47,782 nucleotides of DNA from Candidatus Staskawiczbacteria bacterium (GCA_963778905.1 CAVZWH010000028.1:1-47782); one strand, 5' to 3'. Counted from the stretch's first letter, positions 12,877-33,816 are shown. A program made the numbers and translations. The notes: generated from the letters alone by a model not told the origin.

Positions 12877-12947
12877 TCGCTCGGATATTTGCCATCGATC
12901 AGCAAGGCAAACAAGGGAAATGCTGATCTCAATTAAATATCCTCGCT
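12877..12947. other. Intergenic hairpin element E1 (TCGCTC-stem...stem-TCGCT)
   Basis: GGATATTT/AAATATCC and GATCAGCA/TGCTGATC stems, each flanked by TC on both sides. Confidence 0.7.
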
Positions 12948-12967
12948 TACAAAAATAAAATTCATTT

Positions 12968-13432
12968 ATGAGAAGAGCATATAAAAAACACAAAGTAGCG
13001 CCGGATAGAATTTACAATGACGTGGAAGTTGGCAAATTTGTAAACAAAGTAATGTCTGATGGCAAAAAATCAACTGCACAAAAAATTGTGTATTCAGCTT
13101 TTGATTTAATAAAAGAACAAACAAAAAAAGAACCTCTGGAAGTTTTTAAGTTGGCAATTGAAAATGCTTCGCCGGTTTTGGAAGTAAAGCCAAAAAGAAT
13201 TGGAGGAGCAACTTATCAGGTTCCAATGGAAGTAAGGGGAGAAAGGAGATTGGCTTTGGCATTTCGCTGGATTATTGACGGAGCAAGAGCAAAAAAAGGA
13301 AAACCAATGGCAGAAAAATTGGCGCAGGAATTAATTGATGCTACAAATAACCAGGGAAACGCAATAAAAAAGAAAAACGACATGCACAGAATGGCAGAGG
13401 CCAACAAAGCTTTTGCTCACTTCGCAAGATAA
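12968..13432 (+). CDS. rpsG: 30S ribosomal protein S7
   Basis: [22 protein letters not shown]. Confidence 0.99.
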
Positions 13433-13435
13433 TTT

Positions 13436-15511
13436 ATGGCCCGTCAACATCCATTAGAAACTTTAAGAAACATTGGAATTATTGCTCACATTGATGCAGG
13501 AAAAACTACTTTTTCCGAGCGTCTTTTGTTTTATACCGGAGTTTCGCACAAAATTGGAGAAGTGCACGAAGGCGACACGGTTATGGACTGGATGGTTCAG
13601 GAAAGAGAAAGAGGAATTACAATTACTTCGGCGGCTACAACAATGTATTGGAGAAATCATCAGATAAATTTGATTGACACTCCAGGCCATATTGATTTTA
13701 CTGCTGAAGTTCAGAGATCTTTGAGGGTTTTGGACGGAGCTGTTGTTGTTTTTGACGGCGTTGCCGGAGTTGAGCCTCAATCAGAAACAGTTTGGAGGCA
13801 GGCAGATAAATATAATGTGCCGAGAGTTTGTTTTATAAATAAATTAGACAGAATGGGAGCCAGTTTTGAAAAAAGTTTTCAGTCAATTTTGAATAAATTA
13901 ACTCCAAATGCAGTGGCGGTTTCGTTTCCGATGGGATTGGAAGAAAAATTAGCTGGAGTAATTGATTTAATGAAAATGAAAGCTCTTTATTTTGAGGGAG
14001 AAAAGGGAATTGAAGTTATTGAAAAGGAAATTCCTGAAGAATGGAAAGCGGAAGCTGAAACCTGGCACAAAAAAATGATTGAAAAAATTGCCGGAGAAGA
14101 CAACACTTTAACAGAAAAGTTTTTGGAAGGGAAAGAAATAACTACCGAAGAAATTAAAAAAGTTTTAAGAAAATCAGTTTTGGAATATAAATTGGTTCCT
14201 GTTTTTTGCGGCAGCGCCTTAAAAAACAAGGGAGTTCAGCCAATTTTGGACGCGGTTGTTGAATTATTGCCTTCGCCTTTGGATGTGCCTCCGCAAAAGG
14301 GAACTGATCCAAAAACAGGAGCTATAATAGAAAAGAAAGCATCGGACGACGAGCCATTTGCAGCTTTGGTTTTCAAAATTGCAACAGATCCTTATGTTGG
14401 AACTTTAACTTATTTTAGAGTTTATTCTGGAGTTTTGCAAAAAGGTTCTTATGTTTTGAACGCAAACACTGGCGAGCAGGAAAGAATTGCCAGAATTTTA
14501 AGAATGCATGCAGACGAAAGACAAGAGTTGGATGTTATTTATGCAGGAGAAATTGGAGCTACGGTTGGGTTAAAAGCCACCAGCACGGGAAATACATTGT
14601 GCGACAAATCAGCTCCGGTTATTTTGGAAAAAATTGTGTTTCCCGAGCCGGTTATTGGAATTAGAGTTGAACCAAAAACAAAAGCAGACCAGGAAAAACT
14701 TATTATGTCTATCAGAAAACTTACCGAAGAGGATCCAACTTTCAGAATTAAAGAAGACATTGAAACCGGAGAAACAATTATTTCCGGAATGGGAGAATTA
14801 CACTTGGATATTATTGCCGACAGGTTGAAAAGAGAATTTCACGTTGAAGCAAATTACGGCAGACCTCAGGTAGCTTACAAAGAAACAATTACAACTGAGG
14901 CCAGTGGCGAAGAAAAATATATCAGGCAGTCTGGCGGAAAAGGACAATACGGACACGTTTTACTTCGCGTAAAACCAAAAGAAAGAGGAGCCGGATTTGA
15001 ATTTGTTGACGAAATTAAAGGAGGAGTGATTCCAAAAGAATTTATTAAGCCGGTTGAAAAGGGAGTTGTGGAGGCAATGGATAAGGGAGTTGTTGCCGGA
15101 TACCCGATGGTTGATGTTGAAGTTACGTTGTATGACGGAAGTTATCACGAAGTTGATTCTTCTGAATTTGCTTTCAAAATTGCAGGATCAATGGCTTTCC
15201 AAAAAGCTGCAAAAGCAGCAAAGCCGGTTATTTTAGAGCCGGTTATGAAAATGGAAGTTGTAACTCCGGAAGATTTTTTTGGACAAGTAATTTCCGATTT
15301 GAGTTCAAGAAGAGGAAAAATTGAACAAACTTCAGAAAGAGTTGGAATGAAAGTAATAGACGCATTGGTTCCGTTGTCAGAAACATTTGGATATGCAACG
15401 TCAATTCGTTCTTTAACCGAAGGCAGAGCCAGTTTTACAATGGAATTTGACAGATATGACCAGGTGCCAACAAATGTTGCACAGGAAATTATTGACGGCA
15501 AGAGGAAATAA
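13436..15511 (+). CDS. fusA: Elongation factor G
   Basis: [25 protein letters not shown]. Confidence 0.99.
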
Positions 15512-15584
15512 GCTTGACTATTGTAAAATAATATAATAATATAAATAGTATTAAATAAAAATATTAAATAATTAAAATAAAATT

Positions 15585-16778
15585 ATGGCAGAAAAATTTG
15601 AGAGGTCAAAACCTCACGTAAACGTTGGTACAATTGGTCACGTTGACCATGGAAAAACCACATTGTCAGCCGCAATTATGAAAGTTTCAAAATTACGCGG
15701 TTTTAAGTCGTCTGACAAAAATGTGGATCAGATTGACGCTTCTCCTGAGGAAAAAGCCAGAGGAGTGACCATTTCAATTACTCACTTGGAATTTGAGACA
15801 GCAAAAAGGCACTATGCTTTAATTGATTGCCCAGGCCACGCTGACTATATCAAAAACATGATTACGGGAGCTGCCCAAATGGACGGAGGAATTTTGTTGG
15901 TTTCTGCTCCGGACGGTCCAATGCCTCAGACAAAAGAACATATTTTACTTGCCAGACAAGTCGGATTGCCATCGTTGGTTGTGTTTATGAATAAATGCGA
16001 TATGGTTGACGACCCAGAAATTTTGGATTTGGTTGAATCAGAAGTAAGAGAATTGTTGAAAAAAAATAAATATCCTGGAGACGAAATTCCTATTATAAGA
16101 GGTTCGGCTCTAAAAGCACTGGAAGCTACATCAGTTGACGATGCAAGCGTAAAACCAATTATTGAATTATTGGACGCAGTTGACAATTATATTCCAGAGC
16201 CAAAAAGAGAATTAGACAAGCCATTTGCTATGGCAATTGAAGATGTTTTTTCAATTGAAGGAAGAGGAACAGTGGCAACAGGAAGAATTGAAAGAGGAAT
16301 TGTAAAACCAAACGATGAAGTTGAAATAATTGGTATCAGGCCAACGCAAAAAACAGTTGTTGTGTCAGTTGAAATGTTTCAAAAATCTTTGGATCAGGGA
16401 CAGGCCGGCGACAATGTTGGAATTTTGTTGAGAGGTTTGAAAAAAGAAGATATTGAAAGGGGCCAGGTAATTTGCAAGCCAGGTTCAATTACTCCTCACA
16501 CAGAATTTGAGGGAGAAGTTTATGTTTTGGCAAAAGACGAAGGCGGAAGACACACGCCATTTTTTACAGGATACAAACCCCAGCTTTACATCAGAACATC
16601 TGATATTACCGGCGACGTAACTTTGCCAGAAGGAACAGAAATGGTTATGCCAGGAGACACAGCCAGCTTAAAGATTAAATTAATTGTTCCAGTTGCTTTG
16701 GAAGAAAAAGGAAATTTTGCCATCAGAGAAGGCGGTAAAACAGTTGGAGCTGGAGTTGTAACAAAGATTATCAAATAA
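15585..16778 (+). CDS. tuf: Elongation factor Tu
   Basis: [21 protein letters not shown]. Confidence 0.99.
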
Positions 16779-16781
16779 AAA

Positions 16782-17168
16782 ATGCCTGTTGCAAAAAAAA
16801 CTACAATAAAAAAGAGGGCTGTAAAAAAAGACGATTCAAAGGGTAACCCAAAAGCTCCAGAAGTCGGTTTGAAGCTTAGAATAAAACTTAAAGCATACGA
16901 CCATAAAATAATTGACAATTCTGCACGCCAGATAATTGATATCGCAAACAGGTACGGAGCTGAAGTTTTGGGTCCTGTGCCTTTGCCAACAGAAATCTTA
17001 AAATATACTGTAAACAGGTCAAGTTTCATACACAAAAATGCCAGAGAGCAGTTTGAGATGAGAGTCCATAAAAGAGTAATTGACATTTTGAATCCAAACC
17101 AGGAAATTATAGAAGCGTTAAGAGATTTGAATTTGCCGTCAGGCGTTGACATTACGATAAAAATATAA
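16782..17168 (+). CDS. rpsJ: 30S ribosomal protein S10 with N-terminal extension
   Basis: [24 protein letters not shown]. Confidence 0.98.
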
Positions 17169-17287
17169 TACAATAGTTAATTATGCGATTGTTAACTTTT
17201 TTATGAATACTTTTTGATAAAAGTTCATAGAATAACAACATTGCCGGAATTCCGGGCAATTGCCCGGTTTTTCATTAAGAAACAATT

Positions 17288-17881
17288 ATGAAGTTTATTT
17301 TAGGAAAAAAAATAGGAATGTCTCAAATGTTTGATAAAAATGGCAAGCTAACGCCGGTCACTTTAATTTTGGCCGGACCTTGCTACATTTTACAAAAAAA
17401 GAATAAAGAAAAAGACGGATACGAAGCTTTGCAGGTTGGTTTCAAAAAGATAGAAAAGAAAAACAAAATCGGCAAATCAATGAAAGGAAAAGAGTACAAA
17501 AATATAAAAGAGTATCGAGGAGTAGACGAAAATTTGAAAATTGGAGACGAAATAAATGCGTCTACTTTTGTGGAAGGAGAAATTGTAAAAGTTTCCGGAA
17601 TGTCAAAAGGAAAAGGATTTCAGGGCGGAGTAAAAAGGCATGGCTTTCATGGAAGACGAGCTACTCACGGCGTAAAGCATGAGCACAGAACAATTGGTTC
17701 TACCGGTTCAAGATTCCCCCAGCACGTTATAAAAGGAAGAAAAATGCCAGGCAGAATGGGATATGAAAGAGTTTCTGTAAAAAATTTGAAAATAATGAAA
17801 GTTGATAAAGACAATAATTTATTAGTATTAAAAGGAGCTGTTCCCGGAAGAACCGGAGCTTTACTTGAAATCAAAGGATAA
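17288..17881 (+). CDS. rplC: 50S ribosomal protein L3
   Basis: GKKIGMSQ, SKGKGFQG, KMPGRMG. Confidence 0.98.
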   Translation: MKFILGKKIGMSQMFDKNGKLTPVTLILAGPCYILQKKNKEKDGYEALQVGFKKIEKKNKIGKSMKGKEYKNIKEYRGVDENLKIGDEINASTFVEGEIVKVSGMSKGKGFQGGVKRHGFHGRRATHGVKHEHRTIGSTGSRFPQHVIKGRKMPGRMGYERVSVKNLKIMKVDKDNNLLVLKGAVPGRTGALLEIKG

Positions 17882-17882
17882 G

Positions 17883-18512
17883 ATGAAATTTGATTTGTAC
17901 AATCAAAATGGAGAAGTTTCAGGAAGCGTTACTTTGCCCAAAGAAATTTTTGAGGTTGAATTCAATGCTGATTTGGTGCACCAGATTGCAGTTTCTTTAA
18001 TGGCCAACAAGCGCCAAATTTCAGCTCACGCAAAAATTAGATCAGAAGTAAGAGGCGGAGGCAAGAAACCATGGAGACAAAAGGGAACTGGACGCGCCAG
18101 GCATGGCTCAATCCGCTCTCCATTATGGAAAGGCGGAGGAGTTACTCATGGCCCAAGAAACGACAGAATTTTTGCAGTAGAAATTCCAAAGAAAATGAGA
18201 AGAAAAGCACTGCTTATGGTTTTGTCTGAAAAAGCAAAAAGTAAAAATTTAATTGTTTTAGATAAAATTGAATTGGAGAAAGGAAAAACAAAAGAAATGG
18301 CAATTTCCCTTTCAAAATTACCATGCAAAAACACCACAACTTTGATTGCCATGCCAGATTACGACAAAAAAGTATTTTTAGCAGCCAGAAATATTAAAAA
18401 AACATCAATTGAAGACGCAAGAAACTTAAATGTTTTGGAATTACTAAATCATAAATATTTATTACTGACAAAAGAAAGCATTAAAACAATTGAAAAAACA
18501 TTCGTTAAGTAA
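17883..18512 (+). CDS. rplD: 50S ribosomal protein L4
   Basis: KPWRQKGTGRARHGS; start set at MKFDL. Confidence 0.98.
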   Translation: MKFDLYNQNGEVSGSVTLPKEIFEVEFNADLVHQIAVSLMANKRQISAHAKIRSEVRGGGKKPWRQKGTGRARHGSIRSPLWKGGGVTHGPRNDRIFAVEIPKKMRRKALLMVLSEKAKSKNLIVLDKIELEKGKTKEMAISLSKLPCKNTTTLIAMPDYDKKVFLAARNIKKTSIEDARNLNVLELLNHKYLLLTKESIKTIEKTFVK

Positions 18513-18517
18513 ATAAT

Positions 18518-18949
18518 ATGGCTTTATTAGATTTCTTAAAAAAGAAAAAGGAAGCAGAGAAAGCAAAAAATGACCCAAAGGGTACTCCGAAAAAACCGGT
18601 TAAGACTTCAGTTGCAAAACCAAAAAAAGAAGAAAAAAAACCAGAGCCGGTAAAAACAAAAGCAAAGAATGTAAAATTTTCATACGAGGCGATAAAACAG
18701 CCGCATATATCTGAAAAAGCAAGCGATTTGTCTGAAAAAGATCAATATATATTTGAAGTTTCGCCAAATTACAATAAAAATGAGATAAAAAAAGCAGTTG
18801 AAGGAATTTATGGAGTGGATGTTTTGTCGGTAAATGTAATAAAGATTCCTTCTAAAAAAAGAAGATTGGGAAAAACAGAAGGTTTTAGGAAGGCTTATAA
18901 AAAAGCAGTTGTAAAAATTAAAAACGGCCAAAAAATTGAAATACTTTAA
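18518..18949 (+). CDS. rplW: 50S ribosomal protein L23 with long N-terminal extension
   Basis: PHISEKA, NKNEIKKAVE, YKKAVV. Confidence 0.96.
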   Translation: MALLDFLKKKKEAEKAKNDPKGTPKKPVKTSVAKPKKEEKKPEPVKTKAKNVKFSYEAIKQPHISEKASDLSEKDQYIFEVSPNYNKNEIKKAVEGIYGVDVLSVNVIKIPSKKRRLGKTEGFRKAYKKAVVKIKNGQKIEIL

Positions 18950-18980
18950 TAGAAATTTTAACTGAATTTATATAATTACG

Positions 18981-19023
18981 TCGCTCGGTCGAAATGAAAA
19001 TAAATTTTCATTTCTTCCTCGCT
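18981..19023. other. Intergenic hairpin element E2
   Basis: TCGCTC-GG-TC-GAAATGAAAAT/ATTTTCATTTC-TT-CC-TCGCT. Confidence 0.7.
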
Positions 19024-19030
19024 AGAAATT

Positions 19031-19858
19031 ATGAAAATATATAAACCAACAACGCCATCAAGAAGGGGAATGACTGGAATAGATTTTTCTCAGCTTACAA
19101 AAAAAGGGCCGGAGAAAAGCCTTGTAAAATACGTGAGAAGAAATGTTGGAAGATCGGCATCCACAGGGCAAATAACAGTAAGACATAAAGGCGGCGGAGT
19201 AAAAAGATTTTATAGAGTCATTGAATTTTCTCAGACAAAAATGGATTTACCGGCAAAAGTAATTGCTTTAGAATATGATCCAAACAGAACAGCTTTTATT
19301 GCTTTAATAGAATATAAAAACAAAGAAAAACAATATATTATAGCTCCGCAAAATTTGAAAGTTGGCCAGGAAATTATTTTTTCAGATTTGGCTCCGTTAA
19401 CTCCGGGAAACAGAATAAAATTAAAAAACGTGCCGGTTGGGACAGCAGTTTATAACGTTGAGCTGGAAGCTGGAAAAGGAGGCAAAATTGTAAGGTCAGC
19501 TGGAAGTTCGGCTCAGGTATTGGCTCATGACGGAGACCATATAAACTTAAAAATGCCGTCTACAGAAATTAGAAGATTTAGCGGCGAATGTTTTGCCTCA
19601 ATTGGAATGGTTTCAAATCCGGAAAACAGATTTTATACATTGGGAAAAGCTGGAAAATCAAGATTGAAAGGCAGAAGGCCGCACGTGAGAGGTTCTGCAA
19701 TGAATCCGGTTGATCATCCGCACGGCGGAGGCGAGGGCAGACAGCCAATTGGTTTGAAACATCCAAAAACTCCTTGGGGCAAGACGGCTTTGGGAGTAAA
19801 AACAAGAAACAGAAAAAAATGGTCAAACAAATTAATCATTAGTAGACGTAAAAAATAG
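19031..19858 (+). CDS. rplB: 50S ribosomal protein L2
   Basis: [23 protein letters not shown]. Confidence 0.99.
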
Positions 19859-19860
19859 AC

Positions 19861-20208
19861 ATGGCAAGAAGCTTAAAAAAAGGTCCATATATTGACGAAA
19901 AATTGCTCGCAAAGGTTTTGAATTTGAGAAAAGACGAAAAAAAGATTATCAAAACATGGGCAAGACATTCTACAATTTCTCCGGAAATGTTAGGCCACAC
20001 ATTTGGCGTACACAACGGAAAAGAATTTGTGCCGGTTTATGTTTCAGAAGATATGGTAGGTCATAAATTGGGAGAATTTGCAGCAACAACAAAATTTGTA
20101 AGACACGGAGGCAGAATGCAAAGAGAAATAGAAGCAGGAGCTGAACAAAAAGAAGCTGCAAAAGTTGAACAGGCGGCGGCACCGGCTAAAAAACCAGCCG
20201 CAAAATAA
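19861..20208 (+). CDS. rpsS: 30S ribosomal protein S19
   Basis: [16 protein letters not shown]. Confidence 0.98.
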
Positions 20209-20220
20209 TACAGAAATTTT

Positions 20221-20667
20221 ATGGAAATTAAAGCTAAATTAAGTAATTTAAGAACAGCGCCAAGGAAAGTCAGGCAGGTAGTTGATTTGGTGAGAGGAAA
20301 AAGAGTGCCAGAGGCGCAGTCTATACTTTTATTTACAGTGAATAAATCAGCAAGAAATATTTCAAAACTTTTGAATTCAGCTTTGGCTTCCGCAAAACAC
20401 AATCACCAATTAAACGAAGAAAATTTATTTATTTCAAAAATTACCGTTGACGAAGGGCCAAAACTAAAAAGATGGCATCCGATGTCAAGAGGCAGAGCAT
20501 ATCCTATTATAAAAAGAACATCGCACATTGCATTGATATTAAGCGAAATAAATCCGACTGTTAAAGAGGTAAAAGAAGAAAAAATAAAAAAATCAGTAGT
20601 AAAAAATATCAAAAAGCCATTGAAAAAAGAAGTTAAACCAAAAAGAAAAATAACAAAGAAACAATAA
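20221..20667 (+). CDS. rplV: 50S ribosomal protein L22
   Basis: APRKVRQV, VDEGP, RGRA, KRTSHI. Confidence 0.98.
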   Translation: MEIKAKLSNLRTAPRKVRQVVDLVRGKRVPEAQSILLFTVNKSARNISKLLNSALASAKHNHQLNEENLFISKITVDEGPKLKRWHPMSRGRAYPIIKRTSHIALILSEINPTVKEVKEEKIKKSVVKNIKKPLKKEVKPKRKITKKQ

Positions 20668-20668
20668 C

Positions 20669-21322
20669 ATGGCTCATAAGGTTCACCCAAAATCATTTAG
20701 AATAAAAGGAACAGAGGATTGGAATATCCGCGGTTTTTACGGCAAAAAAATGCCACAATATTTAGAAGAGGACTTTTTGATTAAGGATTTTTTAAGAAAA
20801 AAATTAGCAGACTCCTCGGTGGCAAACATAGAAATAGAGCACTCGGCAAGCAAGCTTAACATAATTATTGATACAGCAAGACCTGGTTTGATTATTGGCA
20901 GAGGCGGCGGCGGGATTGATTTGTTGAAAGCTGAAATTGAGAAAAAAATCGCAAAACAAATAAAAAATAAATCAAAAAGAGAATATAAAATAGAAATTAG
21001 AGAAATAAAAAATCCGTGGATTTCTGCTGCATTAGTTGCTCAAATGGCGGCTCAGCAAATTGAAAAAAGAATTCCATTCAGGCAGGTTTTGAAAAAATCA
21101 ATTGAAAGAGTAATGACGAACAGGGAGGCAAAAGGAATTAGAATGGAAGTTGCAGGAAGATTGAACGGAATTGAAATTGCCAGACGAGAATGGCTGGGAC
21201 AAGGCAGATTGCCAAGAAATACAATCAGGGCTGACATTGATTACGCGCAGGACGAAGCGCACTGCACTTATGGAAAAATTGGAATAAAGGTTTGGATATA
21301 TAAAGGAGATAAATTTGAATAA
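20669..21322 (+). CDS. rpsC: 30S ribosomal protein S3
   Basis: HKVHP, RPGLIIG, GRLNGIEIAR. Confidence 0.98.
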   Translation: MAHKVHPKSFRIKGTEDWNIRGFYGKKMPQYLEEDFLIKDFLRKKLADSSVANIEIEHSASKLNIIIDTARPGLIIGRGGGGIDLLKAEIEKKIAKQIKNKSKREYKIEIREIKNPWISAALVAQMAAQQIEKRIPFRQVLKKSIERVMTNREAKGIRMEVAGRLNGIEIARREWLGQGRLPRNTIRADIDYAQDEAHCTYGKIGIKVWIYKGDKFE

Positions 21323-21331
21323 CAAATTATC

Positions 21332-21760
21332 ATGGGAATATTAATGCCGAAAAAAGTAAAGCACAGAAAGTGGCACAAAGGCAGGGGAAGAAATCGTGCC
21401 GGAGTTGAAACCAGAGCAACTGAAGTTAATTTTGGCAGTTTTGGATTGAAAGCTTTGGAGGCAAAATGGTTAACGGCAAGACAATTGGAAGCAGCCAGAA
21501 GATATATAATAAGATATATGAAAAAAGGAGGAAAAATTTGGTTAAGAGTTTTCCCTGATAAGCCGGTTACTTTTAAGGGATCTGAAGTCGGAATGGGCTC
21601 GGGCAAAGGAAATGTTGACCATTATGTGTACCCAATAAAGCCGGGAAGAATTATTTTTGAAATAGACGGATTAAAAGAAGATATTTCCAGAGAAGCTTTG
21701 GAAGGAGCAGGACAAAAGTTGCCAATCAAGACAAAATTTGTTAAAAAGGATAGTATTTAA
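21332..21760 (+). CDS. rplP: 50S ribosomal protein L16
   Basis: PKKVKHRK, FPDKP, MGSGKG. Confidence 0.98.
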   Translation: MGILMPKKVKHRKWHKGRGRNRAGVETRATEVNFGSFGLKALEAKWLTARQLEAARRYIIRYMKKGGKIWLRVFPDKPVTFKGSEVGMGSGKGNVDHYVYPIKPGRIIFEIDGLKEDISREALEGAGQKLPIKTKFVKKDSI

Positions 21761-21771
21761 TACATAAAAAG

Positions 21772-22189: not shown

Positions 22190-22190
22190 T

Positions 22191-22559: not shown

Positions 22560-22564
22560 ACAAC

Positions 22565-22870: not shown

Positions 22871-22871
22871 C

Positions 22872-23427: not shown

Positions 23428-23613
23428 ATGGCAAAGACATCACAAGAAGCAAAAGCAAAAATGAAACCAAAGTATCCTTCTAGAAAGATTAGAAGATGTT
23501 TTAAGTGCGGTAGAAGGCATGGTTTTATGAGAAAGTTCGGCCTTTGCAGAATTTGTTTTAGAGAATTAGCAAATAAAGGAGAAATTCCGGGAATTAAAAA
23601 ATCATCCTGGTAG
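23428..23613 (+). CDS. rpsN: 30S ribosomal protein S14, Zn-binding type Z
   Basis: RCFKCGR...[12 protein letters not shown]. Confidence 0.97.
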
Positions 23614-23614
23614 T

Positions 23615-23751
23615 ACGATCAGGTATTTTGGCAAAAGAGACGCAAAATTTTACCAGCGTAAAATTTTGCTCAGCTCTCGGCTTGATATTTCACTTTGGTG
23701 AAAACCATGCTATCAAGCCTCGAGGTGCTCTTTTGCCAAAATACCTTCGCT
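23615..23751. other. Intergenic multibranch hairpin element E3
   Basis: Perfect 19-bp inverted repeat AGGTATTTTGGCAAAAGAG/CTCTTTTGCCAAAATACCT followed by TCGCT; nested hairpins inside. Confidence 0.85.
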
Positions 23752-23773
23752 AAAAAATTATAAATAAAAAAAT

Positions 23774-24163: not shown

Positions 24164-24177
24164 TTAAATTAAAAATT

Positions 24178-24723: not shown

Positions 24724-24732
24724 AAATATATC

Positions 24733-25083: not shown

Positions 25084-25101
25084 TTGAAATAAAAAAATAA
25101 C

Positions 25102-25773: not shown

Positions 25774-25774
25774 C

Positions 25775-26206
25775 ATGCAGATACACGAATTAAAACCAAA
25801 ACATAAAAATAGAAGCAAAAAAAGAGTTGGCAGAGGAGGAAAAAAAGGAACTTATTCTGGAAAAGGAATAAAGGGGCAGAAATCAAGAGCAGGCAGAAAA
25901 ATGGTGCCAATTATCAGAGAATTAATTAAAAGATATCCAAAATTAAAAGGATACAGAAGTTTTGTTTTAGATGATTATTCGGCGGTTGTAAATCTTGAAA
26001 CTTTAGAAAAAATTTCAAAAGATGGAGAAACAATAAACCCGGAAAATTTGATTAAAAAAGGCATTATTAGTAGAATGAAAGGAAGAAATCCAAAAGTGAA
26101 GATTTTAGGAACCGGAAAACTTACAAAAAAATTGATTATAGAAAACTGCAAAACATCAAAAACCGCAAAAATAGCAATTGAAAAAGCCGGAGGTAAAATT
26201 TCTTAA
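25775..26206 (+). CDS. rplO: 50S ribosomal protein L15
   Basis: RVGRG, KGQKSRAG, VKILGTG. Confidence 0.97.
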   Translation: MQIHELKPKHKNRSKKRVGRGGKKGTYSGKGIKGQKSRAGRKMVPIIRELIKRYPKLKGYRSFVLDDYSAVVNLETLEKISKDGETINPENLIKKGIISRMKGRNPKVKILGTGKLTKKLIIENCKTSKTAKIAIEKAGGKIS

Positions 26207-26209
26207 ACT

Positions 26210-27487
26210 ATGTGGTACGATAAAATATTATTTCTTTTCAAAAATAAAGAATTAAGGAACAAATTCTTTTTTGTGCTTTTTCTTTTTATTGTTTTTAGAT
26301 TGGCGGCAAACATTCCAATACCTGGAATTGGAGCCGAAAATTTAAGGAAATTTTTTGACCAAAATCAGGTTTTTGGTCTTTTGAATTTGTTCACCGGCGG
26401 CGCTTTGAGTAATTTTTCCCTTGTTTTGCTTGGGCTTGGTCCTTACATTACAGCCACAATTATTTTGCAGCTTTTGACAATGATTTTTCCTGCTTTGGAA
26501 AAATTATACAAAGAAGAGGGCGAGTCGGGCAGGCAAAAATTTAATCAATATGGAAGATTGCTCACAATTCCTTTGGCCGCATTTGAGGGATATGGAATGC
26601 TGACGGTTTTTGCCCGCGAGGGAATTATCACAGGACTTTCATTGCCAGTAATGTTGTCGGCCATCGCGACAATCACAGCAGGAGCCATGTTTTTGATGTG
26701 GATTGGCGAAATTATTTCAGAACAGGGAATGGGAAACGGCATTTCTTTGTTAATTTTTGCCGGTATAGTTGCCAGAATTCCAATAAATATTTTCCAGACA
26801 TTTTCAGCATATAGCCCTTCGCAAATTCCTTCTTATGTGGCATTTTTTGTGCTTTCTATAATTATAATTGCCGGAGTGGTTTTGATTACAGAAGCTCGCA
26901 GAAATATTCCGGTCTCTTATGCAAAAAGAGTGAGGGGAATGAAAATGTATGGCGGAACTTCAACTTATCTGCCGCTAAGCGTAAACCCGGCCGGAGTTAT
27001 TCCAATTATTTTTGCGTTGTCTATACTTTTATTTCCAGGAATGATTGCCAGTTATTTTGGAACATACGCAGGACTTGTTGGAGTTGTGTCCACAAATATC
27101 GGCGCATTTTTCAATAACGTTTGGATACACGGAGTTTTATATTTTTTACTGGTTATTTTATTTACATATTTTTATACCGCGGTCACATTTGATCCAAAAA
27201 CAATTGCCGAAAACTTGCAGAAAATGGGCGGATTTGTGCCAGGAGTAAGACCGGGCAAACCAACAGCTGATTTTATGAAACATATATTAAACAGAGTTTT
27301 GTTTACCGGCGCAATATTTTTAGGATTAATAGCTGTTTTGCCGTCAATTGTTGCAGGATTAACGGGCGTTACCGGATTTACATTTTTGGTTGGAGGCACT
27401 TCGCTTTTAATCGTTGTAAGCGTTGTTTTAGACACAGTAAGGCAAATTAATGCGCAACTGCAAATGCGCGAATACGAAACTTTTTAA
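26210..27487 (+). CDS. secY: Preprotein translocase SecY
   Basis: LGLGPYITA, GNGISL, GVIPIIFA, PGVRPG, GGTSLLI. Confidence 0.99.
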   Translation: MWYDKILFLFKNKELRNKFFFVLFLFIVFRLAANIPIPGIGAENLRKFFDQNQVFGLLNLFTGGALSNFSLVLLGLGPYITATIILQLLTMIFPALEKLYKEEGESGRQKFNQYGRLLTIPLAAFEGYGMLTVFAREGIITGLSLPVMLSAIATITAGAMFLMWIGEIISEQGMGNGISLLIFAGIVARIPINIFQTFSAYSPSQIPSYVAFFVLSIIIIAGVVLITEARRNIPVSYAKRVRGMKMYGGTSTYLPLSVNPAGVIPIIFALSILLFPGMIASYFGTYAGLVGVVSTNIGAFFNNVWIHGVLYFLLVILFTYFYTAVTFDPKTIAENLQKMGGFVPGVRPGKPTADFMKHILNRVLFTGAIFLGLIAVLPSIVAGLTGVTGFTFLVGGTSLLIVVSVVLDTVRQINAQLQMREYETF

Positions 27488-28191
27488 TGGAAAAGCAAAT
27501 TATAATTTTATTTGGACCTCCTGGCGCCGGGAAAGGAACTCAGGCTGAAATTTTGGCTGATAAAACAGGATATTATCATTTTGAATCCAGTAAAATTATT
27601 GAGGCTTGTTTTGAAAATGAAAGCGACCCAAAGGGTGCCCCAAAACTTTTTGAAATAGAAGGGCAAAAATATAAAGTCCAAGATGAAAAAAAGCGATGGC
27701 AAGAAGGATTGCTGAACAGTCCGCCCTTCGTTGTTTTTTTAATGGTTGAAAAAATAAAAGAATTAGCAAAAGAAGGAAAATCAATTATTTTTTCCGGCTC
27801 TCCCAGAACTGTTTATGAAGCAGAAAAAGAAATTCCTTTATTAAAAGAGCTTTATGGCTTGGAAAATATAAAATTTATTTTATTGGAAATTACAGCCGAA
27901 ACTACAATTTTTAGAAATTCTCACAGAAGAATTTGCGAGCTAATCCGCCACTCAATTTTATTTTCCCCAGAAACAGAAAATTTAACAAAATGCCCGTTAG
28001 ACGGTTCGGATTTGGTAAAAAGAAAAGGATTAGATGACCTCCAAACAATAAAAAAAAGATTGGAAGTTTTCAAAGAGCAAACTTTTCCTGTTACAGAAAT
28101 TATTCAAAAACAAGGACTTAAATTGCACAAAGTAAACGGCGAGCAAACCGTGTCAGATGTCCACAAAGATGTTTTAGAAGCCATAAAATGA
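27487..28191 (+). CDS. adk: Adenylate kinase (divergent)
   Basis: GPPGAGKGTQ P-loop; position between secY and map; GSPR in place of the usual GFPR. Confidence 0.88.
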   Translation: MEKQIIILFGPPGAGKGTQAEILADKTGYYHFESSKIIEACFENESDPKGAPKLFEIEGQKYKVQDEKKRWQEGLLNSPPFVVFLMVEKIKELAKEGKSIIFSGSPRTVYEAEKEIPLLKELYGLENIKFILLEITAETTIFRNSHRRICELIRHSILFSPETENLTKCPLDGSDLVKRKGLDDLQTIKKRLEVFKEQTFPVTEIIQKQGLKLHKVNGEQTVSDVHKDVLEAIK

Positions 28192-28931
28192 TAAATATAA
28201 AAACACAAGAAGAAATTAAAATTATTGCCGAAGGTGGAAAAATTTTGGCTGCTGTCATAAAAAATTTAGAAAAAATGGCAAAGCCGGACGTTACCACGTT
28301 GGATTTGGACAGAGCCGCAGAGGCTCTCATTTTGTCTGTGGGAGCTACGCCCGGATTTAAGGGTTATGACGGTTTTCCTTTTTCTTTGTGCGCGTCTGTA
28401 AACGAAAATATTGTGCACGGCTTTCCTTCGGGATATGTTTTGAAAGAAGGAGATTTGTTAAAATTGGATTTGGGAGTTTTGTATAAAGGTTTTAATACAA
28501 ATTCGGCAACAACAATTGCAATTGGAAAAGTTTCTTTTGAGGCAAAAAGATTGATGAATGTCACAAAAAAATCTTTGCGATTGGGAATTAAAAAGGCAAA
28601 AGTTGGAAATACGATTGGCGACATCGGAAACACAATCGGCAGATTTGTTGAAGACCAGGGATTTGGAGTTGTGCGGGATTTGTGCGGCCACGGCATTGGA
28701 AAAAATTTGCACGAAGATCCAAAAATTCCAAATTTTGGCAAAAGAGGCGGAGGAGAAAAATTAGTTGAAGGGATGGTAATTTGCATTGAGCCGATGGTTA
28801 CGGCAGGGGACTACAATTTAAGAAAATCAGACGATGGCTACGGATACGCCACAAAAGACAACTCTTTGTCAGCCCATTTTGAACACACAATTGCAATCAC
28901 AAAATCCGGTCCAAAAATTTTAACAGAATAA
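28188..28931 (+). CDS. map: Methionine aminopeptidase type I
   Basis: VHGFP, GHGIG, HEDP, IEPM, AHFEHT. Confidence 0.97.
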   Translation: MINIKTQEEIKIIAEGGKILAAVIKNLEKMAKPDVTTLDLDRAAEALILSVGATPGFKGYDGFPFSLCASVNENIVHGFPSGYVLKEGDLLKLDLGVLYKGFNTNSATTIAIGKVSFEAKRLMNVTKKSLRLGIKKAKVGNTIGDIGNTIGRFVEDQGFGVVRDLCGHGIGKNLHEDPKIPNFGKRGGGEKLVEGMVICIEPMVTAGDYNLRKSDDGYGYATKDNSLSAHFEHTIAITKSGPKILTE

Positions 28932-28953
28932 TTTTTGTGATAGAATTAAATAT

Positions 28954-29655
28954 ATGAAACCATTAATTGCTGCGAATTGGAAAATGAATCCAGTTTTGCA
29001 AAAAGAAGCAGAAAATATTTTTGAGGGAATTAAAAAAGGCGTCAAAAATGCAACATCGGAAGTTGTTGTCTGCCCGCCGTTTATTTATTTAGAAAAATTA
29101 AAAGGGTTGGCGCTCGGAGCACAGAATATTTATTTTGAAGAAAAGGGAGCGTTTACTGGAGAAATTTCCGGAGAAATGTTGAGAGATTTGGGAGTTGAGT
29201 ATGTGATTATCGGACATTCAGAACGCAGAAAATATTTTGGTGAAACAGATGAGACTGTAAATAAAAAAATAAAAAAAGCGCTGGAATTTGGATTAAAAAT
29301 TATTTTCTGCATTGGCGAAACGGCCGAAGAAAGAGATGCCGGTAAAAAAAATGAAGTTTTGCAAAGGCAAATTCAGCAAGGGTTAAAAGACGTTGTTGAT
29401 ATTGAAAATGTTAATGTTGCTTACGAGCCGGTGTGGGCGATTGGAACTGGAAATAATTGTTCGGTTCAAGAAACAAAAGAATCAATTGATTTTATAAGAA
29501 AATTTGTAAAACAAGACACTAGAATACTTTACGGTGGAAGCGTAAAAAGCGAAAATTCCGGAGAATACATAAAATCTGCCGGGGCAAATGGATTATTGGT
29601 TGGCGGTTCGTCGCTAAACGCCGAAGAATTTGTAAAAATTGTGAAATCGGCGTAA
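28954..29655 (+). CDS. tpiA: Triosephosphate isomerase
   Basis: ANWKMN, GHSERR, AYEPVWAIGTG, YGGSV. Confidence 0.98.
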   Translation: MKPLIAANWKMNPVLQKEAENIFEGIKKGVKNATSEVVVCPPFIYLEKLKGLALGAQNIYFEEKGAFTGEISGEMLRDLGVEYVIIGHSERRKYFGETDETVNKKIKKALEFGLKIIFCIGETAEERDAGKKNEVLQRQIQQGLKDVVDIENVNVAYEPVWAIGTGNNCSVQETKESIDFIRKFVKQDTRILYGGSVKSENSGEYIKSAGANGLLVGGSSLNAEEFVKIVKSA

Positions 29656-29664
29656 GGTGTAACC

Positions 29665-30186
29665 ATGGATAATGATATATTAAACAACGGGCATTTTTTT
29701 AGCCCAAGCAAGGGAAATTTAAGTTTAGAACAAGTTATAAAAGAGATTTTCGGTTATATGCAGGAATTTCCGGAATATCAGTATGAAGTTGTGGTTGGGT
29801 GCGATTCGCCGTCATCTGACAAGCCATTTTTTCCAATTGCCATTGTGGTTTTAAGAACAGGATTTGGCGGCAGATTTTTTCTAAAAAAAATGCAATATCC
29901 GGATTCTTTTTTGAAAAGGTTTGCAAATATAAATTGGAAAAACAGAATTTTACAGGAAGTTTATTTGTCTTGCGAATTGGCATTATCTTTGAAAGAAGTT
30001 TTGGAAAAAGAAAATAAATTAGGATTAAAATATCAATTTGAATACATTCATGCTGACGTTGGCGAAATTGGCAAAACAAAAGAAATGGTAAAAGAGGTTG
30101 TTGGGTTGATAAAAAGCACTGGCTTCGAGCCGCGCATAAAACCGCAGTCATTTGCAGCAACAGTAGTTGCCGACAGATATACATAA
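29665..30186 (+). CDS. RNase H-like YkuK (DUF458) family protein
   Basis: VGCDS, RILQE, IHADVG..GKT, VADRYT. Confidence 0.85.
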   Translation: MDNDILNNGHFFSPSKGNLSLEQVIKEIFGYMQEFPEYQYEVVVGCDSPSSDKPFFPIAIVVLRTGFGGRFFLKKMQYPDSFLKRFANINWKNRILQEVYLSCELALSLKEVLEKENKLGLKYQFEYIHADVGEIGKTKEMVKEVVGLIKSTGFEPRIKPQSFAATVVADRYT

Positions 30187-30190
30187 AATT

Positions 30191-30211
30191 AACCGGCGAA
30201 AGTCGGTTTTT
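30191..30211 (+). terminator. Intrinsic terminator
   Basis: AACCGGC-GAAA-GTCGGTT followed by T residues. Confidence 0.7.
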
Positions 30212-30251
30212 AGTTGTTGCGCAAAATAATTTTTTGATGTAAAATTATAAA

Positions 30252-31900
30252 ATGACTTCAAAAGAATTACGCCAGAAGTTTTTGGATTTTTTTGAAAAAA
30301 ATGGACACACAATTGTGCCCTCTTCTTCGCTTTTGCCAACAGACCCAAGCGTGCTTTTTACAACCGCCGGAATGCAGCAATTTAAGCCATATTATTTGGG
30401 AAAGAATCTCCTTTTGGAAAAAATGTTGCTTCGTGCCAGAAATGCATAAGGACTTCCGACATTGAAGAAGTGGGCGACGAAAGACACCTGACATTTTTTG
30501 AGATGTTGGGTAATTTTAGCTTCGGCGGCTATTTTAAGGAAGAGGCGATAAAATTGGCGAAGGAATTTTTAGACGAATTGAAAATAAAAATTGACTATGT
30601 GACAGTTTTTGAGGGCGATGAAAATACGCCAAGAGACGAGGAATTGGCAAAAATTTGGGGAAAATTAGGTTTTTTGGAAAAAAATAAAAGCTTACGATTT
30701 GAAAATAAAAAAGAAAACTTTTGGGGACCTACGGGCGAGGAGGGACCATGCGGGCCAACGACAGAAATTTATTCAGGGGGCATTGAAATATGGAATATTG
30801 TTTTTAACCAATATTATTCAAAAAATGGAAAATTAGAATCCTTAAAAAATTCGGGAATTGATACTGGGATGGGATTGGAAAGATTGGCAATGGTATCGCA
30901 AAAAACAGAAACAGTTTTTGAAACTGATTTGTTAAAACCTATTATAAAATTTATTCCGGAGAAAGCTGGTTTTGATGAAAGAAAAAAAAGAATTATTGCA
31001 GACCACGCTCGCGCCATTGCATTTTTAATTTCTGATGGAGTTAAACCTTCAAACAAAGAATCAGGGTATGTTTTAAGGCGGCTGATAAGACGCATTGTTG
31101 CGTATGAATTTTTGGCAGGAACAATTTTTTTACAAGATTTATTAAAAAAAATATCCGATGACAGCAACCTTAATTGTAATGTTGTGCTAGATGAATTTTA
31201 TAATGAAAGAAATAAATTTTTAGATACGCTTCAAAAAGGAATTTTAGAATATTCAAAAATTAAAGAAATTGATGCAAAATCGGCCTTTTTTCTTTTTCAA
31301 AGTTTTGGCTTGCCGTTTGATATTTTGAAAGAACTGGACCCCGATAAAACTAAACACTTAAAACAGAAAGATTTTGAAAAAGAATTGCAAATTCACCAGG
31401 AGCTTTCAAGAACTGCTTCGGCTGGAATGTTTAAGGGAGGGTTGGCTGATGCAAGTTTGGAAACCACAAAACTGCATACCGCAGCTCATTTGATGCTGGC
31501 TGGATTAAGAAAAGTTTTGGGAAATGATGTTTATCAAAAAGGAAGCAATATCACTGCGGAAAGATTACGATTTGATTTTTCGCATAAAGAAAAGGTGACC
31601 CAAGAACAAATAAAAGATGTGGAAAATTTTGTAAATGGTATAATAAAAAAAGACTTGCCAGTTTATTTTGAAGAAATGACTTTAGAAAAAGCCAGAGAAT
31701 TAAATGCTATGGGAGTTTTTGAATCAAAATATGGAGAGAGGGTTAAGGTTTATACTATTGGTTCGGGAAATGAAATTGTAAGCAGGGAAATTTGCGGAGG
31801 GCCCCATGTGGAAAGAACAGGAATTTTGGGGCATTTCAAAATACAAAAAGAAGAAAGCTCAAGTTCAGGCGTTAGGCGCATAAAAGCAATATTAGAGTAA
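30252..31900 (+). CDS. alaS: Alanine--tRNA ligase (short form), split by a one-base frameshift at about 30398-30404
   Basis: [11 protein letters not shown] in frame 1; [38 protein letters not shown] and CGGPH in the -1 frame. Confidence 0.95.
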
Positions 31901-31912
31901 AACATTAATACC

Positions 31913-33202
31913 ATGCCAAAAAAAATATACGACATCAAACCGCCAAAAGTTGCCCATAAAGTAGAAAAAGAACTTAAAGAATTTTTGGACCTAGATAAAA
32001 ATAAAAAGACCCAAGGGGCATCCCGTCGCCATAAAAAAGAGGGCAGTTCTGTTTGGTGGCCAGTTTTAATTGGGATTTTGATAGTTGTGCTTGCGGCTGG
32101 AGTATATTTATTTTTTAATTTGCCAAAAGTTGATATTTTAATCTGGCCAAAAGTTGATACTCTAAGCTTTCAGCAAACAATAACAGCAGACAAATCTGTT
32201 GACGCAGTTGATTCTGTTAAGGGAATTGTTCCTGCCCAATATTTTGAAGTTTCTAAAACCATATCTCAAGATTTTCCGGCTACCGGAAACGCAGACAATA
32301 CAGGCGAAGCTTCGGGCACAATAACAATATATAATAAATATGATCCGCCAACGCCATTTACCTTAAAGGCCGGCACGCATTTTTTATCTGATTCCGGGAA
32401 ACTTTTTGTGGCTTTGCAGAAAATTGTGGTTCCGGCAGCTAAAAAATCCGGAAGCAAATTGACGCCGGGCTCGGTGCAAGTAAAAGTTCAAGCAGTAGAA
32501 GGCGGAGAATCGTATAATATTGCTCCCTCTAATTTTTCTGTTCCAGGGCTAAAAGGCACAACATATTATTATAGCATTTATGCTTCTTCAGACAGCGCGA
32601 TGACCGGCGGTTATGCCGGAAAAGTCAAAAAAGTTACAGATGACGATATACAAGGCGCCAGCGATACTTTGACAAAAAAAGCAACAGATGATGCCGAAAC
32701 AGATCTAAAAAACCAGGTTCCTTCTGATTCTGTTTTATTGGATAACGCAATTTCTGATAGCACCACTGACGCCTCAACTCAAACAAAATCCGGAACAGTG
32801 GCAGATAGTTTTAATTACAGCGTGACGGTTAAATCTTCCGGGTTGGCATTCAAAAAATCTGATTTAGATAATTTTGCAAAAGATTATATTGTTTCTCAAA
32901 TGCAATCCGGACAAACTTTACTAGACAACAGTTTTAAGATAAATTATTCGGCTGCAGCAGTAGACGTTTCTGGCGGAAAGGCAACGCTTAATTTGGATTT
33001 TTCATCTGGCGTTTATCAAAACATTGATAAAAATTCAGTGGCTTTATCTTTGCTTGGCGAAAATGCCAACCAAATAAACCAAACTATTAATAGCAGCTTG
33101 GGAGACCAGGTTTCTAAAATAAAAATTAATTTCTGGCCGTTTTGGGTGGTTTCAGCTCCAAACAGCCAAAACGCAGTAAACGTAGAGTTAAAATTTCAAT
33201 AG
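31913..33202 (+). CDS. Single-pass membrane protein with a baseplate-J-like extracytoplasmic region
   Basis: One TM helix near residues 48-68; ASGTITIYN, AGT.F, PGSV, YNI and AMTGG pattern; family call from memory. Confidence 0.55.
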   Translation: MPKKIYDIKPPKVAHKVEKELKEFLDLDKNKKTQGASRRHKKEGSSVWWPVLIGILIVVLAAGVYLFFNLPKVDILIWPKVDTLSFQQTITADKSVDAVDSVKGIVPAQYFEVSKTISQDFPATGNADNTGEASGTITIYNKYDPPTPFTLKAGTHFLSDSGKLFVALQKIVVPAAKKSGSKLTPGSVQVKVQAVEGGESYNIAPSNFSVPGLKGTTYYYSIYASSDSAMTGGYAGKVKKVTDDDIQGASDTLTKKATDDAETDLKNQVPSDSVLLDNAISDSTTDASTQTKSGTVADSFNYSVTVKSSGLAFKKSDLDNFAKDYIVSQMQSGQTLLDNSFKINYSAAAVDVSGGKATLNLDFSSGVYQNIDKNSVALSLLGENANQINQTINSSLGDQVSKIKINFWPFWVVSAPNSQNAVNVELKFQ

Positions 33203-33249
33203 AGTATTGACTATTTAAGTTATATTTGTTAAGATTATAAATTATACAA

Positions 33250-33483
33250 ATGCCCCAAAACGAGGGAAAAAATAATCAAGTTATAAAAAAAGAAGGGAGG
33301 GTCACAGAGGCTTTACCAAATGCCTTTTTTAAGGTAGTATTAGAGGACGGAAGAGAAATTATGGGATTTCTTTCCGGCAAAATGAGAATGAACAGAATTA
33401 CTATTTTACCGGGAGATAAAGTTTCGGTGGAAATGACTCCATATGACGACAAAAAAGGAAGAATAGTTTATAGATTAAAATAA
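33250..33483 (+). CDS. infA: Translation initiation factor IF-1
   Basis: EALPNA, SGKMR, ILPGD, TPYD. Confidence 0.98.
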
Positions 33484-33537
33484 ATTGTTAAACCTGTTAA
33501 ATTGCGATATTGTTATATTGCATTTAACATTTTTTTT

Positions 33538-33654
33538 ATGAAAGTTAGACCATCAATTAAAAAAATTTGTAATGATTGCAAAATCATCAGAAGAGAGGGG
33601 CGAATTTACGTTATTTGCAAAAAAAATCCTAAACATAAACAAAGACAAGGATAG
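33538..33654 (+). CDS. rpmJ: 50S ribosomal protein L36, not in the ORF track
   Basis: [38 protein letters not shown]. Confidence 0.97.
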
Positions 33655-33816
33655 CACTTGTTAATTTTTTCCTTTTGACGCGCAGTCGGCGCAGATGTAA
33701 AAAATTTTAATCTCCGCCGCTGCTATATCTCGCCAAGCCTCAAGGGTAAAATAGAGAACACAAAGTATAATTTCGGGCTTGGCTCGATGTGTCAAAAGGA
33801 AAGAATTAACTTCGCT
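33655..33816. other. Intergenic multibranch hairpin element E4
   Basis: 23-bp outer stem 33660-33682/33788-33810 with 3 G-T pairs, followed by TTCGCT; inner TC-GCCAAGCC/GGCTTGGC-TC. Confidence 0.85.

Follow-up and report, generated by a model that had tools for sequence, protein, structure and literature searches.

Repetitive palindromic sequences of extragenic DNA (REPs) and the insertion sequences of the IS200/IS605 family are recognised as single-stranded DNA hairpins with a short conserved foot sequence and act on the lagging-strand template, REPs being defined by a GT[AG]G tetranucleotide at the 5' foot of the hairpin (PMC6006769). In this study, we report a superfamily of intergenic hairpins that is represented by four members, E1 to E4, in a 47,782-nucleotide stretch of DNA from Candidatus Staskawiczbacteria bacterium (GCA_963778905.1 CAVZWH010000028.1:1-47782). 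This whole stretch, here called the window, carries the S10-spc-alpha ribosomal superoperon of a 741-kb genome of 36% G+C in 31 contigs, and positions are counted from its first letter. Tiny, tightly packed bacterial genomes of this kind are thought to carry few mobile elements. On balance, the hairpins are probably copies of non-autonomous, structure-defined mobile DNA elements, forming a superfamily similar to REPs and to miniature transposable elements with inverted repeats (MITEs) that is common in this small-genome order. Its members would be a simple hairpin (E1), a TATAATTAC-type unit (E2) and a three-way junction of about 150 nt (E3 and, in diverged form, E4), with one foot common to all; E3 would belong to the most elaborate family, and E1, E2 and E4 to other families with the same foot. 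The elements are insertions that differ between close relatives, at many loci, that amplify and that nest in each other's loops, and their stems covary with almost pure Watson-Crick pairing.

The closest described systems resemble these elements in part. The repeats of the REP/REPIN-RAYT system (TnpA_REP, a Y1 HUH protein) are likewise short intergenic palindromes with lineage-variable stems and a short conserved foot, present in many copies and often inside operons (PMC6006769). The foot here, however, is CGCTCGG/CCTCGCT with a TC/TC mismatch and not 5'-GT[AG]G, members reach 150 nt and have a three-way junction and conserved loops, the host belongs to a small-genome order and not to the Proteobacteria, and no Y1 gene flanked within about 1 kb by the repeats was found at 4 scanned Y1 loci or in about 8 genomes compared by eye. 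The ends of IS200/IS605 elements, and of their miniature derivatives (PATEs), are imperfect hairpins read on one strand only, with insertion beside a short specific sequence; here E1, E2 and nested copies both follow TCGCT, a putative target, and end in it. Unlike IS200/IS605, the ends of our elements pair in one long hairpin and not in two separate subterminal hairpins, and no tnpA or tnpB was found inside or beside any copy. Transcribed intergenic MITEs such as the Correia, ERIC and RUP elements share with them a length of 70-150 nt, inverted-repeat ends, a place in operon spacers and variability between strains, and the E2-type units also have AT-rich ends (TATAATTAC ... GTAATTATA); those families, however, are defined by sequence, whereas conservation in the present elements is confined to the foot and a few unpaired letters, all stems covary, and orientation is almost always sense. 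Integron attC sites are also structure-defined, act as folded single-stranded DNA that is strand-specific through its unpaired bases, and lie just after an open reading frame (ORF) in one orientation. As far as search results show, no description of an element family such as the present one was found in the literature.

Common to all four elements of the window (Table 1) is a polar foot, 5'-(T/G)CGCTCGG ... CCTCGCT-3', in which G-C and C-G pairs surround a UC/UC mismatch and GG/CC pairs follow; on the opposite strand the TC/TC mismatch is GA/GA. TCGCT closes every element (12943-12947, 19019-19023, 23747-23751 and 33812-33816), and the 5' side starts with TCGCTCGG in E1 and E2 and with CGATCAGG in E3. 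A first-pass annotation, made from the sequence alone, had placed hairpins in these four spacers and had seen all of them end in TCGCT, which sequence and folds bear out. Its count of six TC/TC instances was roughly right: a strict scan of the four spacers, demanding at least 2 Watson-Crick pairs outside, a 2x2 non-pairing loop and at least 6 pairs inside, returned three (12881/12943, 23677/23720 and 33730/33784), and the foot of E2 in its fold has the module repeated (GC-UC-GG-UC / UU-CC-UC-GC), whereas the outer foot of E3 is degenerate, with one closing pair lost, and RNAfold favours CGA/UCG with a one-sided UC bulge. E4 is laid out as E3 is, with a long outer stem and two inner hairpins, one of them containing the TC/TC loop at 33730/33784. 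Each element was folded against 200 dinucleotide shuffles; none was as good as E3 (z -10.8, 0/200) or E4 (z -7.2, 0/200), and the excess was modest for E1 (z -3.0, 2/200 as good) and E2 (z -2.2, 7/200 as good).

Table 1. Positions, strands and layouts of the hairpin elements in the ribosomal superoperon of the window
Feature	Position	Strand	Description	Basis
E1	12877..12947	+	Foot hairpin in the rpsL-rpsG spacer	Sequence, fold
E1 layout		+	TCGCTCGG, 9-bp outer stem, inner 8-bp hairpin, then CCTCGCT	Fold
E2, whole repeat unit	18949..19031	+	rplW-rplB spacer	Sequence, fold
E2 layout			Small variable hairpin, then ATATAATTAC-G-TCGCTCGG-TC-[10-bp hairpin]-TT-CCTCGCT-A-GAAATTAT	
E2, core as first annotated	18981-19023	+		
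E3	23612..23755	+	rpsN-rpsH spacer; member of the ~150-nt three-way-junction family (R1)	
E3, stem P1	23621..23746	+	Arms 23621-23639 / 23728-23746; 19 bp, 100% complementary	
E3, hairpin P2	23642..23669	+	Loop contains the family-conserved CCAGCG	Fold
E3, arm P3	23674..23724	+	CUC, UC/UC loop, 9-bp stem, conserved ACCAUGC bulge, 6-bp tip hairpin	
E4	33655..33816	+	rpmJ-rpsM spacer; arms 33660-33679 / 33791-33810	

The operon was fetched from 24 congeners, giving a spacer set from 25 genomes of the genus in which genes were placed by tblastn. In the resulting matrix of spacer lengths the ground state is 1-15 nt, with stop and start codons often overlapping, and inserts of 60-200 nt sit in different spacers in different single genomes. 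Spacers of at least 55 nt made up 15 of the 17 assessed in genome G010, 19/29 in G022 and 14/32 in G023; the window's genome had 5/35, and six genomes had none. E2 is missing from the rplW-rplB spacer of most congeners, which is 1-2 nt long there. No sequence match to E3 was found among 40 relatives; the closest congener, with flanks 91% identical, has a 10-nt spacer at that site, and a DNA contig from a related population joins 23612 to 23764 through three other letters, constituting an empty E3 site with 151 nt skipped. E4 was present in none of the 7 congeners with a readable rpmJ-rpsM spacer, which is 8-37 nt in five of them and carries other inserts in G005 (86 nt) and G022 (82 nt). The comparison of orthologous spacers proposed in the first-pass annotation finds E2, E3 and E4 missing from the same spacers of close relatives.

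This distribution bears directly on the idea that the hairpins are autoregulatory leaders of ribosomal-protein genes, in which S7, L2, S8 or S4 would bind sites mimicking rRNA. E1, E3 and E4 do lie upstream of rpsG, rpsH and rpsM, where such sites are known in some bacteria, but most or all congeners lack the elements in the same spacers, no Rfam leader was matched, and related copies were located next to numerous non-ribosomal genes, including the atpD-atpC and groES-groEL spacers and a site upstream of gltX. Already contradicted by presence and absence, this idea is scarcely credible.

Relatives of the four elements are dispersed. E2 has four further copies in its own genome (contig positions C16:2758-2795(-), C16:5286-5329(-), C26:12617-12654(+) and C1:30765-30810(-)); with conserved flanks, the type reads TATAATTAC-G-TCGCTCGG-TC-[variable hairpin]-TC-CCTCGCT-A-GTAATTATA and has another, small hairpin of variable sequence in front. 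The type is dispersed in congeners as well, with 15 matches in G023 and 10 each in G018 and G022. A paralogue of E1 with 80% identity occupies the atpD-atpC spacer of the same genome (C11:14474-14537(-)); its outer stem is altered by compensatory substitutions, and 5'-GCGAGAG pairs fully with CTCTCGC, leaving no TC/TC loop. A homologue of E4 with 73% identity was found at another locus of G010, between a murG-like gene and gltX, with feet GCGCTCG ... CCTCGCT, and the groES-groEL spacer of the window's genome holds a further foot element. The hairpins had been called unrelated in sequence; E1 to E4 each proved to have relatives elsewhere, by sequence or by model, and the signature they share extends beyond the TC/TC loop and 3' TCGCT noticed at first to the whole polar foot.

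Copies also lie within copies. In the rplW-rplB spacer of G019 an E2-type copy is nested in the apical loop of another E2-type copy, in G003 the same inner element occurs within different outer elements (rplO-secY and x3-x4 spacers), and among three-way-junction copies foreign hairpins are inserted at CCAG^CGAG of the P2 loop at four loci (L127, L196, L198 and L203). Amplification and transfer are seen in nearly identical copies. Four in G154 are 92-98% identical among themselves, and their repeated unit extends about 75 nt beyond the 3' foot, where short tandem repeats form its tail; between families, a G055 copy (f30) shares 95% identity with a G067 copy (f42). Insertion polymorphism, dispersed copies, nesting and near-identical copies, both within a genome and between families, support the second of two explanations offered by the first-pass annotation, a nested family of structure-defined miniature mobile elements.

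The foot signature itself was recovered without prior assumption. An unbiased k-mer ranking of 129 ribosomal-operon spacers of 55-260 nt placed at the top, on the sense strand, the 7-mers CGCTCGG (18 times against 0.1 expected, never as reverse complement), TCGCTCG (20 times, once as reverse complement) and CCTCGCT (16 times against 0.1 expected, never as reverse complement), and the exact feet occur in 22 spacers between 16 different gene pairs in 13 of the 25 genomes. A search for CGCTCGG-N15-130-CCTCGCT in 301 genomes of the order (199 genera) gave 358 matches, in 115 genomes and 88 genera, against about 83 matches, by a hand count of the table, for the reversed pattern used as control. A chance origin of the signature was considered and is ruled out by the 7-mer excess and by the counts against the reversed control.

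TCGCT(A/T)CGCT, a tandem pentamer standing alone between A/T letters, turned up repeatedly, both in short spacers and in the loops of hairpins: it was seen in the spacers rpsN-rpsH of G008, rplE-rpsN of G023, rpsS-rplV of G019 and x3-x4 of G003, and in the tip loops of the G277 copies. It could be a landing site or a footprint.

The long matches to the foot pattern share one layout, consisting of an outer stem P1, a hairpin P2 with the loop CCAGCGA, and an arm P3, in which 3 bp and a UC/U(C/G)C loop are followed by 9 bp, then an ACCAUGC bulge and lastly a 6-bp tip. A covariance model of this family, R1, was built from 9 copies in 7 genomes of other families with E3 left out. The model, which answers the first-pass annotation's call for such a check, matched E3 at 78.8 bits (E 3e-15); it also matched a second copy in the same genome (C3:2377-2526) at 110.3 bits and the element in the groES-groEL spacer of that genome at 35.2 bits, and gave no match to E1, E2 or E4 at E <= 1. 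In a survey of 151 genomes (121 genera) of the order, R1 matched 62 genomes and 55 genera with 1-8 copies each; in a separate phylum-wide sample of 151 genomes it matched 8, of which 6 lay outside the order. Rfam 15 yielded 0 matches in the window at gathering score, 0 matches at E <= 0.1 for 13 loci with R1 copies, and nothing but two tRNAs for 7 other loci, those with the inverted pairs described below, and this, together with the literature search, agrees with the earlier remark that the hairpins were not recognisable as a described family.

All 50 pairs of the R1 alignment (43 members) vary on both sides. Paired cells amounted to 94.3%, against 64.0% after shuffling (0/500 reached the observed value) and 37-49% with slid partners, a very large margin, even allowing that an alignment fitted to the model, as this one was, is biased towards the structure. 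Unpaired motifs are conserved as well, with TC/TC at the foot in 35 of the 43 members, TC against T(C/G)C in the P3 loop in 38, CCAGCGA in 24 and ACCATGC in 25. The P2 loop CCAGCGA is complementary to TCGCT, but the variant loop CCTGCGA of G244 goes with unchanged feet, in one row only, which gives no support for pairing between loop and foot.

Functional RNAs usually show far more G·U than A·C pairs. Among the 2093 pair cells of the R1 alignment, 1936 were Watson-Crick, 37 G·U and 32 A·C; because G·U is about as frequent as A·C and not in excess, the sequences suggest that it is in the DNA, or on both strands, that pairing matters. Folding of the two strands did not sustain the earlier suggestion that G-U pairs favour a + strand RNA. 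The strands of E1 to E4 fold about equally well, with only E4 better on + (-68.8 vs -64.1 kcal/mol) and E1, E2 and E3 slightly better on -. Among 30 TCGCT-type spacers the antisense (-) strand folded better in 27, an advantage that comes in part from the folding model's energy bonus for tandem GA, and G·U pairs numbered 31 on + against 51 on -.

Position relative to genes was assessed at the 29 R1 loci with an upstream ORF, as called by a crude ORF caller of our own. The ORF was co-oriented in 27, and in 20 of these the model begins no more than 5 nt from the ORF end, the stop codon lying 0-2 nt ahead of CGCTCGG; the distance to the downstream ORF is larger and variable. The upstream gene encodes a ribosomal protein in 8/29 (S7 twice, S9 twice, L14, L23, L6 and L18), and others encode GroES, ATP synthase beta, RRF, PGK, GatB, SecD and GyrA.

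Downstream of some R1 copies, the stretch from the 3' foot to the next start codon consists of 3-4 tandem ATTCGTA-like heptamers and ends in GG(T/C)TTATG (L147, L148, L150, L152, L143, L141, L158 and L190-L193; ATGTTTAA-like in G154). In G154 the tail belongs to the repeated unit. The element may bring such a heptamer tail with it as a promoter or as an array of binding sites.

A place directly after stop codons, in the sense of the gene, would suit unusual transcription terminators or attenuators, and U-rich letters often follow the 3' foot (e.g. CGCUUUAU or CGCUUAUU). The tails after E3 and E4 are A-rich, however, ordinary terminators made of a hairpin and a T run exist elsewhere (e.g. 37654-37696), strong terminators within S10-spc-alpha would cut off essential genes, and most orthologous spacers do without the elements; we consider a terminator function highly improbable.

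The same positions bear on the idea of cis-acting RNA elements of the operon mRNA, a module 3' of the stop codon whose UC/UC foot a nuclease or a binding protein would read, so as to process the message between cistrons, protect its 3' end or provide coupling. Mobility would then be merely the mode of spread, or the module a domesticated mobile element. The sense orientation at 27/29 R1 loci, the start within 5 nt of the stop codon at 20/27, the high expression of many of the upstream genes (8/29 ribosomal proteins; GroES, ATP synthase beta, RRF and PGK) and the conserved unpaired nucleotides all accord with this, and stems of about 20 bp would suit a double-strand-specific nuclease. So does recurrence after the same genes in different families: the S7 and S9 genes were each struck twice, and the groES-groEL and atpD-atpC spacers carry elements both in the window's genome and elsewhere. 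The conserved unpaired motifs, the start after the stop codon and this recurrence would also fit a selected RNA element and count against reading the hairpins as mobile DNA. An RNA-library contig identical to the window spans rpsN into the 5' arm of E3, although DNA carry-over is possible; the RNA-library data are assembled contigs, which do not show RNA ends or levels, and the best-matching sequencing run contained 0.28 of the sampled words. The contig stops at 23641, from which no meaning is drawn, since assembly breaks at inverted repeats. Against an RNA element stand the G·U pairs that do not exceed A·C (37 vs 32), the better folding of the antisense strand in 27/30 spacers, the two antisense copies in operons, the nesting and the foreign hairpins in loops, the inverted pairs that flank unrelated cargo, and the absence of any element from most orthologous spacers of the genus, where the genes abut. 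Processing or regulation, the first of the two earlier explanations, is thus weakened by the empty orthologous spacers, by the elements beside unrelated genes and by the lack of a G-U excess over A-C, and we hold it to be rather unlikely.

The direction of the copies on the chromosome was examined in G055, the only closed genome, in which dnaA lies at 304 kb on the - strand. R1-type copies occur at 107, 228 and 246 kb on - and at 467, 475, 489, 500 and 539 kb on +. If the origin is assumed to be near dnaA, the TC strand would always have the leading-strand sequence and hence be on the lagging-strand template. This is comparable to IS200/IS605, whose orientation is tied to replication direction (PMC6006769); 8/8 of the G055 R1-type copies fit, a figure inseparable from gene direction.

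If the hairpins are mobile DNA, the active form would be folded single-stranded DNA, and the asymmetric foot would mark the strand that is recognised. The elements may enter single-stranded DNA, either on the lagging-strand template or on the displaced sense strand of heavily transcribed operons, and such entry would account for the sense orientation, for the enrichment of copies in highly expressed operons and for hairpin loops serving as targets. They would presumably be moved by an enzyme acting in trans, perhaps of the HUH/Y1 type, which is the nearest precedent. In the ribosomal operon the elements would be passengers that fold out of the mRNA, and if its stability or processing were affected, this would be secondary.

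The enzyme was sought among Y1 transposases. Y1_Tnp (PF01797) proteins were found in 14/26 genomes of the genus and 74/151 of the order, and in the order survey their presence and absence was associated with that of R1 (40/22/34/55, odds ratio 2.9, p 0.0017), which may reflect only genomes rich in mobile DNA. Across the 25 genus genomes the operon hairpin load and the number of Y1 copies had a Spearman correlation of 0.29 (p 0.16). A link to the Y1 transposase was rejected, as there was no adjacency at the 4 Y1 loci scanned or in about 8 genomes compared by eye, and copy numbers did not track each other.

Several results of these searches weigh against mobility. The window's own genome has no Y1_Tnp match, no TCGCT hairpins were found beside the 4 scanned Y1 loci (L114-L117), and Y1 positions never coincided with element positions in about 8 genomes compared by eye. 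The genomes richest in Y1 (G117 with 22, G159 with 16 and G160 with 14) have at most one foot-pattern match, G117 having none, and G005 has 17 foot-pattern matches and no Y1. No mobilising enzyme was found. Neither a clean target-site duplication nor exact ends could be recognised on comparing filled with empty sites and aligning the four near-identical G154 copies: E1, E2, nested copies, the C14 copy and that of G010 have TCGCT (or GCGCT) both in front and at the end, but empty ribosomal spacers are without TCGCT and the inserts are wider than TCGCT to TCGCT, and TA flanks many copies on both sides but is common anyway in AT-rich spacers. Orientation provides further difficulties. A 29-nt foot hairpin of G055 (489783-489811) lies on - within the + half of the genome, and two antisense R1 copies (G098:C3 and G089:C21) run counter to the strand of most genes on their contigs as well as to the GC skew there. 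Copy orientation tracks gene direction as well as replication direction, and because these antisense copies run against both, the two causes are inseparable here. To these points are added the crude calling of upstream ORFs and the kinship of the sampled genomes, so that counts are not independent and independence is overstated, though most matches lie in different spacers.

One type of foot hairpin, CGCTCGG-GCGGGGCGGGAA ... TTCCCGCCCCGCC-CTCGCT, was observed as inverted pairs 2-4.5 kb apart at 7 loci (L118-L124) in G164, G053, G196, G028, G089 and G123, with the CCTCGCT side always inward. The cargo between them is varied and includes DNA methylases, HNH, a LexA-like gene, and a radical SAM gene with prolyl-tRNA synthetase. 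Two pairs adjoin a tRNA, two contigs end just beyond a pair, and one locus lies beside a tRNA and a serine-recombinase fragment. That these pairs bound an autonomous element was considered and rejected, the cargo being without a transposase.

Such pairs recall attC-like recombination sites, which, folded as single strands, variable in sequence and placed after ORFs, would serve a site-specific recombinase moving gene cassettes. Variable sequence with conserved structure and ends, the position directly after ORFs in fixed orientation, and the enclosure of 2-4.5 kb of varied cargo at 7 loci, one by a tRNA and a serine-recombinase fragment, are what that proposal would predict. The window's elements, on the other hand, stand between core, essential ribosomal genes and not cassettes, the feet are without the attC core sequences (R''/R'), and the pairs are inverted and not direct. 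No integrase-like gene, attI or cassette array turned up, the integrase not having been searched for systematically, and the cargo of the inverted pairs holds no integrase. We judge this proposal very unlikely.

A wider interpretation of the hairpins as mobile DNA is put forward tentatively and, taken with all its parts, is doubtful. The foot would be what a novel system recognises in order to move folded single-stranded DNA in small-genome bacteria of the candidate-phyla type. This module, GA/GA on the other strand, is sometimes repeated two or three times, and the system would put elements of any inner sequence just behind stop codons in highly expressed operons and into loops of older copies; the three-way junction with its CCAGCGA loop and ACCATGC bulge would be the most complete substrate; and it is possible that, through inverted pairs, the system delimits and moves cargo-gene blocks too.

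The extent of the superfamily gives these elements some general interest. In some genomes most spacers of the ribosomal superoperon hold hairpin inserts, and the superfamily occurs in at least 88/199 sampled genera of the order. With the foot there is a defined substrate, open to test, through which the recognising enzyme may be sought. For annotation, a structure in an operon spacer that covaries strongly is not necessarily a regulatory RNA, and G·U pairs that do not exceed A·C serve as a simple discriminator. If it is true that the elements alter the fate of mRNA, operons that are otherwise frozen would gain from them a means of changing their regulation fast.

Other hairpin families, without TCGCT, occupy the same operon spacers (L084, L087, L099, L101, L110 and L111; G007, G010, G022 and G024). 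Their arms are inverted arrays of short tandem repeats, e.g. CTACCAA, CACCCAA, GTTCCAT and AGAATTC, and a further type reads GCGAGC..GCGAGACTTACCCCGCCCTCTATGC ... GGGCGGGGTGCTCAGCTC. Another dispersed family has the arms TCACCCCGTTAGA(A/G)G ... C(T/C)TCTAACGGGGT and a flank of TC/TC type; it was located at 302-367 of the window, at C7:15835-15972 and C13:9559-9653 of the same genome, and in the rplN-rplX spacer of G013. The window's genome also contains a GC-rich structured repeat of about 130 nt (GGGCGGGCGAATTAAGGC ... CGCTCCTCGCGCCTCGAA) in at least 6 copies, known through pattern matches only (C1:~30500-30640, C2:~15360-15470, C24:~5830-5930 and ~37620-37720, C16:~14270-14350, C22:~8880-8925 and C10:~10-50).

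The rpsJ-rplC spacer (17169-17287) is unlike the others, measuring 103-150 nt in most congeners and more in some. Its core, CGATAGTTAAC ... AACAACATTGCC, is conserved, with a GC-rich hairpin and then a T run behind it, and it had no Rfam match at gathering score; it looks like a genuine conserved leader or attenuator. Finally, the window has a 65-aa ORF at 30252-30449 and, in a different frame, an ORF of 476 aa with a GTG start at 30470-31900, the start of which we take to be an alanyl-tRNA synthetase motif. The N-terminal part runs on unbroken into the product of the 30470-31900 ORF in congeners, and 30252-31900 could be a frameshifted or split alaS.

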